Positions 1 to 36,771 of a stretch of DNA of 64,000 bases are shown one piece after another. Both the position numbers and the translations under genes were made by a program. Each line of letters begins with the position of its first letter. Positions within the stretch are counted from its first letter, which is position 1. The notes under the pieces were generated by a model that was given only the letters and a program-made list of their open reading frames with translations, was not told the origin of the DNA and searched no databases. The DNA comes from a virus (lineage: Duplodnaviria; Heunggongvirae; Uroviricota; Caudoviricetes), in the IMG/VR virus record IMGVR_UViG_2513237361_000012, positions 1 to 64,000 of that record; one strand, given 5' to 3'.

Positions 1-318
1 TTATTGATTAAATGGCGCTTCGTGTTTAAGAACTTTATCGATAATGTCCAGTACGCCTTCATGGTTATTGGAGCCTGCACGGTATTTCGCCGCCGCTACG
101 ACTGCGTTGCCAGCATTTTCCATTGCAAAGCTAAAGCCCGCCTGACGCAGCATCTCAATATCATTACCGCCATCGCCAAAAACCACCACTTCGCTGTCGT
201 CTATGTCCCATAATTTCTGGAGTTGACGCAGGCCATTGGCTTTATGTACGCCGGGGATAATCAAATCGATACTACCGTTGCCGGTATGGACTGGCACCAT
301 AATATCTAAAGCGCGCAA
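1..318 (-). pseudogene. ybjI: HAD/Cof-type phosphatase gene, 3' portion (gene split by prophage insertion)
   Basis: Translation carries HAD motif (FGDGGNDIEM); matching 5' portion lies at 36250-36771; frame runs straight into prophage end. Confidence 0.8.
302..306. repeat. 5-bp target-site duplication (ATATC), copy 1
   Basis: ATATC at 302-306 and 36254-36258; codons GAT-AT (Asp-Ile) appear at the end of the 5' fragment and the start of the 3' fragment of the split HAD gene. Confidence 0.6.
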
Positions 319-323
319 AATTA

Positions 324-389
324 TTCAAGATAGATATGGAATTCTTTCAAGATAAGCCAGAAGCGCACATATGGAAGTTATTCAAGATA
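324..389 (+). repeat. Terminal repeat array, 3 x TTCAAGATA (mom-proximal end), candidate transposase binding sites
   Basis: TTCAAGATA at 324-332, 346-354, 381-389; same 9-mer in inverted orientation three times at the other prophage end. Confidence 0.55.
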
Positions 390-432
390 AAACAGCGGCA
401 TTGGCCGCTGCTTTTTTATTCATTAAGTGGGC

Positions 433-1170
433 TCACTTCGGGTATGGCTGAACCCTGAATAGCTTGGTGTTTAGGCGCTTTTTTGCGCGCTTATTCAGGA
501 ATCTGATGTAGCGATACTGATTAAATTTGTGTACCACGGCCCGCTCCTTATTAGCCCGCAAATACACACCTCGTTGCCCTCCGCGCTTAATCGCGTTCAT
601 CGCTATCTCGTGATACCACTCGCCGTCCAGTTCGTAGAACGTGCTTTCGTGGCTGCCTATAAAATCAAAATTCGACGCCTGATATACCACGCCAGCACGT
701 CCGCAGCGTTCATCTGCAAAGGACTGAACCCACTCCACTGACGGGTACAGTAACCTGATGGTTTTCAGCGCGTAGCTGATGGCCCGTGATTCAGAATTGC
801 GGGGCATGTCGTCGTGTAGCCACATGCGGTTCAGTTCCATATAGCCCCGGTTATCCGTTTCCAGCACAACACGACGCCCTGAGCTGGGGTTAAGGGCATA
901 TCCCCACTGAAGAACGCCAACCAGATCACGTCCGCTGAATACGCCCAGATGCAGGTAGGAGTTATTCACAAAACGGCGGGAATAGTGTTTTGTCTGAATG
1001 ATTGTGCGGGCCAGCCAGCAGGATATGGTTTCAACGCGCAGCTCCTTTGAACCATAGCCGACAATCCGGCCTTCATACTCAATAACGCAGGGTTTTGTCA
1101 GAATGCGTGATTTCTTCTCTTTTCCCACAATACAGCTCCGTGGGATGCTCTTTGGCATTCGATATGACAA
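433..1170 (-). CDS. mom: Mom DNA-modification protein (start codon uncertain)
   Basis: Translation matches the phage Mu Mom protein from memory; sits at distal prophage end directly downstream of and overlapping com. Confidence 0.8.
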
Positions 1171-1264
1171 TGTAACGTTTACAGCGAGGACATTTTATTT
1201 CTATATGCTTAAAACCTCCTTTAAACAGTAATTTATTGCAGTTTTTACAGCGAACAGAGTCCAT
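1079..1264 (-). CDS. com: Com zinc-finger translational activator of mom
   Basis: [16 protein letters not shown]...CPRCKR: Cys4 zinc finger matching Mu Com; overlaps mom start; ORF-track start at 1291 is probably too long. Confidence 0.8.
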
Positions 1265-1336
1265 GATTCCCCCTGTGTAATAACCAGACATGAGCGCCCG
1301 GAGGGCTGGGGGTATTTAATCACAACCGATGCAAAC

Positions 1337-1366
1337 CGACGATCGATATGATGTTATCGATCGTCA
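1337..1366. promoter_or_regulatory. GATC-containing palindrome upstream of com-mom (candidate Dam-sensitive control region)
   Basis: Inverted repeat CGACGATCGATA / TATCGATCGTCA with GATC at 1341-1344 and 1359-1362, about 75-100 bp upstream of com. Confidence 0.45.
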
Positions 1367-1387
1367 TAAACTATACAAACTGATTAT

Positions 1388-1963
1388 TTAACCACCGGGC
1401 GTTAACGCTCTTACCTCGTCCAGCGTGGACAGCCGGGAAAGCTGCTCCTTCATTTCACGCTGGCGCTGATAAATCTCGTTATTGCGATCGACCTGTGCCT
1501 GAACCATTGCTGTAAGCAGTTCATCCAGTTTCTGCATCGACAGTTTCACCTGCTGGTTTTCCGCATCGCCCCATACCATGGTTTTTCGCGCTGTGTCAGA
1601 CTTTGATGCCATAACTGCCGGATAAAGACGAGCCATTGAGTCGGGGCCAGCGTTCCAGGTATGACCGTTCCATTCGAACGTGAACGGCAGTGCTTCCTGT
1701 TCTGTTCGCCACGCCTCGATTTCCCGCTTTTTGGCATCCTTCGCCGCGGCGATAAGTTCGGGTGTAATAGTGAACGGGGCGATTTCACCCCATTTGCCGC
1801 TCTGTAACTCTTCCCAGATGCGCTGGCCTGTCATTGCGGTATCATCCTGCATGGCGGTATACGGGACGAATTCCGTTTCACCTTCAAATAACACCTCGCA
1901 GTCAACCGCACCATTTTCAAGATAATGCGCGCTTCTGATGCCTTTTACCGCTCTGATTTTCAT
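1388..1963 (-). CDS. Tail fiber assembly protein (Tfa/U-like)
   Basis: Position immediately downstream of a tail-fiber gene; size and sequence character typical of Tfa chaperones. Confidence 0.65.
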   Translation of the reverse strand: MKIRAVKGIRSAHYLENGAVDCEVLFEGETEFVPYTAMQDDTAMTGQRIWEELQSGKWGEIAPFTITPELIAAAKDAKKREIEAWRTEQEALPFTFEWNGHTWNAGPDSMARLYPAVMASKSDTARKTMVWGDAENQQVKLSMQKLDELLTAMVQAQVDRNNEIYQRQREMKEQLSRLSTLDEVRALTPGG

Positions 1964-35041: not shown

Positions 35042-35043
35042 TT

Positions 35044-35277
35044 TTACGCCACCTTACGAACGTAGCGGCTGGGCCAGATCTCCTCCGGAGCCACACCGAT
35101 AGCATCAGCAATAATGCGCTCATACTTAGGGCATTTGCGGTACAAGGCATTCTTTAAAGAATCCTTGTTTAAACCTGCTTCAACTGATAGTGAACGCAAA
35201 GTAAAGCCTTTCACATGCACCGCAGCGACAACATGTGCCGGGTGCCAGTCCTGTTTTACAACTTCATTTATAGACAT
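35044..35277 (-). CDS. ner: Ner-like DNA-binding regulator
   Basis: C-terminal ...EEIWPSRY motif shared with Mu Ner/Nlp family; start taken at MMSINEV. Confidence 0.75.
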   Translation of the reverse strand: MSINEVVKQDWHPAHVVAAVHVKGFTLRSLSVEAGLNKDSLKNALYRKCPKYERIIADAIGVAPEEIWPSRYVRKVA

Positions 35278-35316
35278 CATTCGTTTATCCTTAAAAGTTA
35301 TCTGCGCGGATAACAC

Positions 35317-35420
35317 CGCCGGATAATCTCTACAGATAAATATTTGATCACTACAAAAGAAAAGTAAAGGGCTTTAATCTCTTTCTTTGGTGATTTTTAT
35401 CTACATAAGGATAAATACTT
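35317..35420. promoter_or_regulatory. Divergent early/repressor control region with repeated GATAA/TTATC motifs
   Basis: Intergenic region between divergent ner and c; palindrome TTATCTGCGCGGATAA plus further GATAA repeats. Confidence 0.45.
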
Positions 35421-36008
35421 ATGAATCATACAGTTAAGAGAAAAGAAAAAAACGATAAAAAAGAAAGTGATTTTTCTTTTCCAGCATTTCAAAAAGAAAG
35501 CATCAAGGAACGACTGGCAAAGTTAATGCGTGGTCGGTCTAAAACCGCAGTTGCGAAAGCGTGGGGGCTTCCATTCTCTACACTTAATAACTATTTTGAG
35601 AAAGATGCGATACCATCTCTACAAGTAGCTAGCCAGATAGCTTTTGCAGAAGGAGTAAGTATTGATTGGCTTGTTTTTGGTAAGGTAGAGGCAGAGTCGT
35701 TACATCCTCAAACAGATAACAACGCCCAGAACCAACCACTCGATATCACACAACAACGCCTCCTGGCTATTCTGAGTGCCCTGGAATCACCGGAGGCTGA
35801 GCGGTTGTCCAAACTCCTGGCACTAAATGGAGCCAAATACTTGTCGCGCTTACTGGAACCTGAGAACCAAGAGTTGATCCAATTAGAAGGGCGAAAACGA
35901 GCAGCGGCACTACTTCTAGATAATCTATCTGATGATAGAGTTAGAGAGATTTTGGCAGAAATTGAAGCTAGTAATCTCTCGCACAGTTTAAAAGCGAAGG
36001 CAGGTTGA
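35421..36008 (+). CDS. Prophage repressor (Mu c-type, divergent sequence)
   Basis: 195 aa, HTH-like segment (VAKAWGLPFSTLNNYF), transcribed toward the prophage end opposite to ner-A-B. Confidence 0.7.
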   Translation: MNHTVKRKEKNDKKESDFSFPAFQKESIKERLAKLMRGRSKTAVAKAWGLPFSTLNNYFEKDAIPSLQVASQIAFAEGVSIDWLVFGKVEAESLHPQTDNNAQNQPLDITQQRLLAILSALESPEAERLSKLLALNGAKYLSRLLEPENQELIQLEGRKRAAALLLDNLSDDRVREILAEIEASNLSHSLKAKAG

Positions 36009-36105
36009 CTTCATTGGCCTGCCTTTAGAGCTTCTTTAAAATCAAATTTAGAGCCAATACTGATGTTTTGAAGGGCTTTCAAACTATCGAAAGGTACGGC
36101 GCGCC

Positions 36106-36237
36106 TATCTTGAATATGTTGTCGATTGTGGCGCATTGAACTTTTTTTGATGCCTCCTATCTTGAATCTAATAGACATCTAACTTATTGAATCCCATCAA
36201 ATCCCGCCTTTTCTAATCTCTTCCCGGTTATCTTGAA
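36106..36237 (-). repeat. Terminal repeat array, 3 x TATCTTGAA (c-proximal end), candidate transposase binding sites
   Basis: TATCTTGAA at 36106-36114, 36158-36166, 36229-36237; inverted relative to 324-389; outermost copy 16-17 bp from inferred end. Confidence 0.55.
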
Positions 36238-36249
36238 TAAATTACCTAG

Positions 36250-36771
36250 TCATATATCGCCAATAGAATCATGTAACTCTTTTTGCACTTGCGGAATCAG
36301 TTCGTCAGAGAGATTTAACCCAAACTTGAAGAAGATATCGTCGATATTGTCAAAGTTATCGACATATTCCAGGCGATGATAGTACATCTCCGCCACGGCC
36401 TTCATTTCGGCGTCATACTTTTTCAGGGTATAGGCGCTATTTTTTCCACAGGCAATAATTTCCACCTCCGGGCGCGTCAGTAAATGCTCCACAATAGTGG
36501 AAAATGCGTCCTTCGACAGTTCGCCATTAAAAACATCTTTGCCTTCGTTCACCACCCAGCCGCCGTTTTCCGCCACAAAGGCAATTTCATTGGCAATTTC
36601 GGGAAAGAACGAAATTAACTGATAATATTGATTTCCACTGGCGACCACAAAGCGAATACCTTGTGCTTTCATCTGCTGATACTGGGCCATAAACCGCTCA
36701 CGGTTATAGGTTTTTTGATCGCTTAAGAAAGTACCGTCCATATCTACCGCAATTAATTTAATGCCCATCAA
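36250..36771 (-). pseudogene. ybjI: HAD/Cof-type phosphatase gene, 5' portion (split by prophage)
   Basis: N-terminal DMDGT HAD motif I; premature stop 1 codon into prophage sequence. Confidence 0.8.
36254..36258. repeat. 5-bp target-site duplication (ATATC), copy 2
   Basis: See copy 1; 5-bp duplication is the size expected for Mu-type transposition. Confidence 0.6.

Follow-up and report, generated by a model that had tools for sequence, protein, structure and literature searches.

A Mu-like prophage in ybjI of an Escherichia strain, with TA termini and a probable 4-bp target duplication

Results

A Mu-like prophage interrupts ybjI

The window analysed here, a 64,000-nt stretch of the IMG/VR virus record IMGVR_UViG_2513237361_000012, begins with the stop codon (positions 1-3) of ybjI, a minus-strand gene encoding a HAD phosphatase, and this gene is split by an insert whose open reading frames (ORFs) are almost all on the minus strand. 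Every gene of the insert aligns with a PGAP-annotated relative in E. coli RM9088. An earlier note on this DNA had described the insert as a Mu-like prophage that entered ybjI by transposition and left a 5-bp target duplication, ATATC. The split of ybjI and the presence of ATATC on both sides of the insert (302-306 and 36254-36258) were confirmed by checking the coordinates and by rebuilding the gene: with 307-36258 removed, 1-306 joined to 36259-36771 encodes in frame a HAD phosphatase of 271 aa. When the two flanks were aligned separately to an intact ybjI of E. coli, the left flank corresponded to reference positions 1-306 and the right flank began at 302, giving an ungapped alignment with a 5-nt overlap at 90.4% identity. 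The joined ybjI-ybjJ DNA gave a single ungapped match in 5,416 of the 5,426 complete genomes of E. coli, and across 5,423 E. coli genomes its identity never exceeded 90.4%; the host is best placed as an Escherichia outside E. coli proper, about 90% identical to E. coli at the ybjI locus.

Over 2,024 nt, the ybjJ-ybjI reconstruction was separated from intact alleles of the same lineage, found through an exact-protein look-up of the neighbouring YbjJ, by 1 to 6 substitutions and no indels; the closest allele is that of GCA_023275955.1 (1 mismatch). The insertion lies within ybjI when judged against both the E. coli and the sister-genome alleles, and the check proposed in the earlier note, that removal of the insert should restore an intact ybjI, came out in its favour; at this locus the check is blind to the difference between 4 and 5 bp. 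The 5-nt repeat can be neither slid nor extended, its neighbours being A301 against T36253 and T307 against G36259.

The interrupted YbjI product stops after residue 172 of 271. Because the GDGGND motif of the HAD family lies in the detached 3' part, the insertion has probably inactivated ybjI, as had been claimed. In the public gene index, the truncated 172-aa YbjI is confined to a single assembly (GCA_000208565.2), with whose contig AEME01000001.1 the window is identical (100% over 9,209 nt), and the host flanks differ from those of a phage-free sister genome by 1 base in about 6 kb, so that the insertion looks recent. As a prophage insertion the event is ordinary, with one non-essential HAD phosphatase gene lost in one strain.

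The Mu-like character of the prophage was borne out by Pfam domains of A, B, Ner, the repressor, the Mu-type virion genes, Mor, GemA, Gam and Mom. No integrase was detected among the scanned ORFs of the insert, and phages with the same ends were located in ybjI, in an alanine racemase gene, in fliH, in a vgrG-type gene, by a molR pseudogene, at the nrfA/nrfB junction and in a P1-like plasmid. Since these relatives occupy different genes, arrival by transposition, and not by site-specific integration, is upheld.

The target duplication is 4 bp in comparable insertions

The size of the duplication proved to be different from that first read. When the element is ended at 36253, as in the earlier note, the TTATTCAAGATA block lies one base nearer to the terminus at the repressor end than at the mom end; with the terminus set at A36254, the block occupies positions 15-26 of both ends, in the same register as in Mu L1/R1, in the Mu-like prophage Sp18 of E. 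coli O157:H7 Sakai and in the Yersinia phage vB_YpM_5. Because of this one-base discrepancy, A36254 was suspected to be carried by the phage, and this was tested on other insertions. Sixteen distinct insertion sites were compared: the window, four complete E. coli genomes, three from a genome-collection scan, six viral contigs, RM9088 and the plasmid pCFSAN004178P_01. The genome-collection scan used the left-end pattern and yielded three sites that are common to two records. A scan of viral contigs with the right end gave two junctions for which no left junction could be matched; two of the viral-contig junctions share an IMG genome but represent different insertions. The chromosomal right end of E. 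coli 06-00048 could not be paired, and the plasmid record pCFSAN004178P_01 was taken in its place.

At all 16 sites the base that follows the phage sequence ending in CCTAGTCAT (...GTCAT) is A, and the next base is variable. Seven insertions had paired junctions, and the 4-nt repeat after this A was perfect in each of them: TATC in the window, GAAT in STEC346, CCTG in STEC388, TTTC in FDAARGOS_943, TGAA in VL40, CTTA in RM9088 and TATA in pCFSAN004178P_01. The fifth host base at the other junction differs from the invariant A in five of the seven (C in STEC346; G in FDAARGOS_943, VL40, RM9088 and pCFSAN004178P_01) and agrees with it in two (the window and STEC388), which is the rate expected by chance. 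In RM9088, taking out one 4-bp copy together with the phage, terminal A included, restored an intact nrfA-nrfB at 100% identity over 276 nt. An E. coli prophage of STEC383 with genuine Mu ends (TGAAGCGG... / ...TCAATACA), taken through the same procedure as a control, gave a clean 5-bp duplication, TCCGG.

The invariant A at 16 sites and the fifth-base mismatch in five of seven pairs indicate that the prophage extends through a phage-borne A, from 307 to 36254, and that the target duplication is most probably the 4 bp TATC, with A36254 as the last nucleotide of the phage, matching host A302 by coincidence. The 5-bp duplication of Mu-type size, and with it the element limits 307-36253, could not be maintained. 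Sp18 is flanked by a 4-bp duplication, TAAA, and for the Mu-like phage Mu_JNE082796 the sequence GATG is labelled in GenBank LC727881 as a 4-bp 'duplication due to insertion of Mu_JNE082796'. Since these two also have 4 bp, the scar would be a property of the phage lineage and not only of this insertion. A 5-bp duplication with one base overwritten during flap repair was also considered and rejected; the flanks carried in virions are variable host DNA and offer no source for an invariant A.

Phage ends and predicted transposase sites

The sequence TTCAAGATA occurs seven times in the 64-kb window, against 0.35 copies expected by chance, and six of the seven copies are terminal: three lie on the plus strand within 90 nt of one end and three on the minus strand within 150 nt of the other (Table 1). 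Their arrangement resembles the R1-R3 and L1-L3 layout of Mu, and supports their designation as predicted transposase-binding sites. In addition, the L1-L2 spacer is similar to that of Mu. The outermost 100 nt of the right end gave no nucleotide match to Mu.

Read inward, the right and left ends are TAAAGCGCGCAAAATTATTCAAGATAG and TATGACTAGGTAATTTATTCAAGATAA in the window, TAAAGCGCGCAAAATCATTTGATACCG and TATGAAGAGGTAAATCATTTGATACTG in vB_YpM_5, TATAGCGCGGCGATTTTTTTGATACCG and TGTAACCAGGTGAATCATTTGATACCA in Sp18 and Mu_JNE082796, and TGAAGCGGCGCACGAAAAACGCGAAAG (R1) and TGTATTGATTCACTTGAAGTACGAAAA in Mu; the ends of the related phages align with those of the window in register from position 1. 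Across insertions the termini TAAAGCG... and ...GTCATA are invariant, and they depart from the TG...CA of Mu.

Transposase A and the target-capture protein B

The N terminus of A matches domain I-alpha of MuA (PDB 1TNS), and Pfam detected PF09299 (1.9e-18), PF02316 (2.4e-9) and a weak rve domain. Residues D308 and D374 align with MuA D269 and D336, and E414, which lies within a GxxER motif, would be the third catalytic residue. Identity to MuA is 23% over the full length of A, and that of B to MuB is 40% across 305 aa. Of the A proteins in phage records, those of vB_YpM_5 and vB_YpM_6 come closest (82.7%, full length), followed by Pseudomonas phage VW-6B (49%), a Klebsiella phage (42%) and D3112-like phages (31%). 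The VW-6B record, with its left end trimmed and its right end ambiguous, is uninformative on termini. At the DNA level, A and B together are about 84% identical to those of vB_YpM_5 and vB_YpM_6.

Identity along A, computed in 40-residue windows, was distributed unevenly. Against vB_YpM_5, in which the end sites carry a TTTGATAC core, identity reaches 95-100% over residues 201-640, which span the catalytic core and the domain after it, and only 42-68% over residues 41-200. The Sp18-like A is 75% identical overall, with a core mostly at 82-98% (one 40-residue block at 72%) and residues 41-200 at 35-70%. Compared with RM9088, which has the same TTCAAGATA ends and another repressor, residues 81-200 are 92-100% identical and residues 1-80 only 38-68%. 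A is thus a domain mosaic, in which residues 1-80 vary with the repressor/immunity region, residues from about 80 to 200 vary with the end sites, and the catalytic core is near-invariant. The I-alpha and I-beta/gamma domains of MuA serve as a guide for assigning the domains of A; by analogy, residues 1 to about 80 would track the immunity/enhancer region and residues of about 80-200 the end sites, while the shared core would set the chemistry of cleavage and stagger. This domain pattern supports the TTCAAGATA repeats as transposase sites and fits a 4-bp duplication across the sub-lineages. On these comparisons, the transposition module (A, B and both ends) is not Mu's own but belongs to a separate lineage common to Sp18, Mu_JNE082796 and vB_YpM_5.

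Relationship to known transposable phages

The insert carries what is expected of a transposable phage, namely a DDE transposase, a MuB-like B, inverted end repeats, a short duplication at varied sites, and Mu-type late genes and regulators. It shares with Mu (Muvirus mu) and D108 the genome plan, with repressor, ner, A and B at one end and com and mom at the other, as well as variable insertion sites and three sites per end in the same register. At the nucleotide level, stretches of the early region (window 27.9-31.9 kb) match Mu/D108 with about 87% identity, and com and mom are likewise Mu-like. In other respects it falls outside Mu in the strict sense: TA...TA and 4 bp stand in place of TG...CA and 5 bp, the end sites have a TTCAAGATA core instead of the MuA-type ...CGAAA, and the phage has a repressor of the HTH_3/CI type. 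For its structural genes, the phage collection, Mu included, offers almost no nucleotide match. No invertase ORF was found between the tail-fibre genes and com (1291-1388 is intergenic), so that gin and the invertible G segment are lacking. The phage is best described as a mosaic, with an early region and com/mom that are Mu-like in DNA and a transposition module that belongs to a separate lineage.

The transposition module is of the type found in Sp18 and vB_YpM_5, as judged from the catalytic core of A, the right end ...GCGC(G)...TA and the 4-bp duplication seen for Sp18 and Mu_JNE082796. These two Mu-like phages of Shiga toxin-producing E. coli (STEC) share with the window phage the transposase lineage, the 4-bp duplication and the right end ...TA; they differ in a left end that starts with TG (TA in the window), in end sites with a TTTGATAC core and in a diverged end-binding part of A. 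Sp18 DNA is efficiently packaged, and Sp18 has an invertible host-range segment, unlike the window phage (PMC2669165). The papers on Sp18 give no duplication length. The closest isolated phage by A is vB_YpM_5, which, like vB_YpM_6, is a plaque-forming Yersinia phage (PMC10434027). It has the same terminal sequences, TATGA... and ...GCGCGCTTTA, but its internal end sites are of the TTTGATAC type and it carries a hin/gin-type invertase. The paper describing it (PMC10434027) makes no mention of ends or duplications. The source of vB_YpM_5 was Marmota himalayana. With the D3112-like phages of Pseudomonas (Casadabanvirus), A shows about 31% identity (E about 1e-75), closer than to MuA; these are siphoviruses whose virion genes are unrelated to those of the window phage.

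Olo Ndela, Enault and Toussaint (PMC8705779) reported that Mu duplicates 5 bp and B3 6 bp, and that TG-CA was conserved in all Mu-like and B3-like phages described before the TA-TA prophages of Leptospira (WETA1 group), which have a B3/Tn552-type transposase and a 6-bp duplication; they also raised the question of whether TA-TA prophages exist in other bacteria. The WETA1 group, the only published transposable prophages so described, shares TA at both ends with the window phage, which differs in its 4-bp instead of 6-bp duplication, in its enterobacterial host and in being otherwise Mu-like. Our literature search on Mu-like phages with TA ends or a 4-bp duplication, whose coverage excluded most subscription journals, found only this Leptospira paper, and the duplications listed in the searched papers are of 5 and 6 bp only; the 4-bp scar is recorded in at least one database annotation (LC727881) and in none of the searched papers.

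Origin of the insertion and alternative explanations

We regard it as very probable that window positions 307-36254 are a Mu-like transposable prophage of 35,948 bp, brought into ybjI by DDE transposition, with a 4-bp duplication and a terminal A belonging to the phage. In such an event, transposase A would bind the three TTCAAGATA-core sites at each end, in inverted orientation, A and the MuB-like ATPase would capture the ybjI target, both 3'-terminal A residues (...TA-3') would be joined to target phosphates staggered by 4 bp, and gap repair would then produce the TATC duplication; the order of these biochemical steps is presumed by analogy.

Several points weigh against this account. The 4-bp stagger is read off finished insertion products, the ybjI locus by itself does not distinguish 4 from 5 bp, and the phages behind the seven paired insertions, though inserted at independent sites, are closely related. 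Transposases of this superfamily usually use a CA 3' end, from which TA departs. Furthermore, three 1-nt deletions, one of them in the portal gene, are odd for a recent arrival by infection. One alternative is a canonical Mu-type insertion, in which ATATC would be a 5-bp duplication and the element would span 307-36253 with ends 5'-TA...AT-3'. An identical 5-nt repeat does flank the insert, removal of one ATATC copy gives an exact reconstruction, and Mu itself duplicates 5 bp (PMC8705779; STEC383 control). We nevertheless consider this explanation very improbable, given that the fifth base is mismatched in five of the seven insertions, yet A stands on the repressor side in 16 of 16; for a host-derived base with an A frequency of about 0.3, the probability of the latter would be about 4e-9. 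It would also place the left terminal site out of register with Mu, Sp18 and vB_YpM_5, the left terminus being drawn one base inward relative to the right. Site-specific integration, or an artefact of recombination or assembly, is more improbable still. The junction is present in one public assembly only, and an integrase-bearing P2-like prophage lies 2.4 kb away, but that integrase is part of a different element, which a sister genome with an intact ybjI carries as well. The insert itself has neither an integrase nor an att-like repeat beyond 4-5 nt and carries instead a DDE transposase, MuB and terminal sites, phages with the same ends occur at many unrelated sites, and base-exact junctions with a short duplication are not a product of misassembly.

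The transposition reading leaves room for different routes of arrival. Compared with close relatives, the prophage has three 1-nt deletions, in N (near 10353), in the portal gene (near 21878) and in a 52-aa ORF (near 24294), which are private to this assembly and lie outside long homopolymers, and the portal is intact (523 aa) in seven other genomes with an identical terminase. These deletions suggest that the prophage is defective; they may be real inactivating mutations or assembly errors. If real, the prophage would be unable to make virions and could still transpose. Together with the recent look of the insertion, they would fit a prophage that was already defective on arrival and that, instead of infecting the cell as a viable phage, moved in from another replicon by intracellular transposition, for instance, or was delivered through helper-assisted packaging. 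We consider such a route unlikely, as the deletions may be assembly errors or post-lysogeny changes, and no second copy turned up in the same assembly within the contig and transposase look-ups that were run. It concerns the route only, the junction chemistry being identical either way.

Implications for Mu-type transposition

It seems reasonably probable that in an enterobacterial Mu-like lineage, made up of the window phage, vB_YpM_5, Sp18 and the relatives of the window phage in E. coli and Shigella, the transposase core performs strand transfer with a 4-bp stagger and accepts TA in place of CA as the reactive 3' end, here at both termini and in Sp18 at a single one. Such a mechanism would be a natural variant of Mu-type transposition that is undescribed in the searched papers, and it would answer the published question on TA-TA transposable phages beyond Leptospira. 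The resemblance of the ybjI scar to the 5-bp signature of Mu would be a coincidence, in a widespread lineage that includes Sp18, leaves a 4-bp scar and carries TA termini. Active phages of this lineage are in hand, making the determinants of stagger length and terminal dinucleotide directly testable. Their transposases form a natural series with one catalytic core, differing end- and enhancer-binding domains, and a TG or TA left end, which could be used for studying end recognition and target stagger in Mu-type transpososomes. The interest is moderate for specialists in transposable phages and low otherwise.

Prophage-boundary and duplication-based detection assumes TG...CA and 5-6 bp, and this assumption would account for misplaced boundaries of Sp18 in the Sakai RefSeq record. 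The Sp18 feature of NC_002695.2 (5040971-5079729) starts one base inside the phage, omitting the T of TGTAACC, and ends 5 bases into the host at the mom side; the annotated boundaries thus seem displaced by 1 nt at the left and by 5 nt at the right.

Features of the window and observations in relatives

The features of the window are listed in Table 1.

Table 1. Positions of prophage, host and neighbouring features in the 64-kb window
Feature	Position	Strand	Remarks
ybjI, 3' part	1-306	-	Resumes DIMVPVHTG; holds HAD motif GDGGND
Left target-duplication copy TATC (predicted)	303-306	.	A302 is host, by chance equal to the phage terminal A
Prophage (predicted limits)	307-36254	-	35,948 bp; termini 5'-TAAAGCG...GTCATA-3'; repressor end 36254, mom end 307; map runs right to left
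Right phage end (attR-like)	307-395	+	Three direct TTCAAGATA cores, 324-332, 346-354 and 381-389
GC-rich hairpin with A and T runs on either side	389-414	.	Just beyond mom end; probable two-way terminator, by inferred function
mom (DNA modification)	433-1170	-	About 89% nt identity to Mu
com (translational activator of mom)	1082-1264	-	com/mom about 89% nt identical to Mu
Tail-fibre assembly protein	1388-1963	-	
Tail fibre	1978-5142	-	1,054 aa
Baseplate module	5527-10099	-	Tail protein, YmfQ, baseplate J, gp46, baseplate V, GpP hub
Gene N homologue (DNA circularisation protein)	10099-11372	-	Broken by 1-nt deletion
Tail module	11372-15553	-	Tape measure 11372-13228, tail assembly, tube 13712-14068, sheath 14078-15553
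Head and head-tail joining	15553-20541	-	Virion morphogenesis protein, gpT major head 17699-18601, protease I 18601-19563, F 19777-20541
Portal (Portal_Mu)	20534-22104	-	Split by 1-nt deletion into 96-aa and 443-aa ORFs
Large terminase and Gp27	22101-24214	-	Terminase 22101-23636, Gp27 23633-24214
52-aa ORF	24207-24361	-	Kept in relatives; broken by 1-nt deletion
GH108 lysin	26694-27290	-	
Mor	27376-27825	-	
GemA	27822-28529	-	
gp11	29249-29788	-	
Gam	29886-30410	-	Early region
gp6		-	Early region
Kil	31685-31912	-	Early region
B, MuB-like AAA+ target-capture ATPase	31925-32878	-	PF09077 (2.4e-23) and AAA_22
A, DDE transposase	32954-35041	-	695 aa; Mu N-terminal DNA-binding domain, rve core, Mu-transpos_C
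ner-like HTH_35 regulator	35044-35280	-	
Repressor	35421-36008	+	HTH_3/CI type, not Mu c type; divergent from ner
Left phage end (attL-like)	36100-36254	-	TTCAAGATA cores 36229-36237, 36158-36166 and 36106-36114, inverted relative to the other end; terminal base A36254
ybjI, 5' part	36250-36771	-	Ends ...SIGDI; residues 1-172 native, then TGA across the junction
Right target-duplication copy TATC (predicted)	36255-36258	.	
DUF4917 / PDC-S21 candidate	38837-39820		Adjoins P2-like integrase
P2-like integrase	39928-41103		
P2-like CI	41343-41918		
P2-like gpA	44693-47107		
PD-T4-7 homologue	47871-48929		9e-144
Retron-type RT-Toprim I-C reverse transcriptase	49513-51342		PADLOC 2e-217
P2-like portal	51384-52412		
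P2-like terminase	52409-54175		
P2 capsid	55168-56226		
P2-like tail fibre	62618-63799		

Within the tail fibre, a stretch of about 2700-4620 is 90.6% identical in nucleotide sequence to the fibre of the lambdoid Rac-SA53 prophage and 85.6% identical to an Actinobacillus phage, identities that would indicate the exchange of host-range modules across unrelated phage types.

A second prophage, P2-like, occupies window positions 38700-64000 by rcdA/ybjK; some sister genomes are without it, and there ybjL follows rcdA. The interval between its gpA and portal genes holds defence cargo, namely the reverse transcriptase and the PD-T4-7 homologue, to which the DUF4917 / PDC-S21 candidate beside the integrase is added.

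Phages with the same ends were also found in rearranged or multi-copy contexts. In the finished chromosome of STEC388 (NZ_CP041425.1), each prophage end adjoins one half of fliH and the two ends are separated by about 913 kb; this would imply a large rearrangement that broke the chromosome within or right at the prophage. In E. coli 06-00048, a phage of the same type is inserted in a P1-like plasmid with the 4-bp duplication TATA, and its chromosome has a true Mu-type left end (TGTATTGATTCAC...) about 35 kb from the right end; the region is apparently a cointegrate of a P1-like plasmid that would have formed by recombination between two different Mu-like prophages. Finally, CP182556.1 (Shigella flexneri SFBU1023) and CP178302.1 (E. 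coli ECMA0423) each contain three copies of a phage with this left end. As the three sites are identical in both records, SFBU1023 and ECMA0423 most probably share a lineage despite their species labels, with the phage present in multiple copies per genome.

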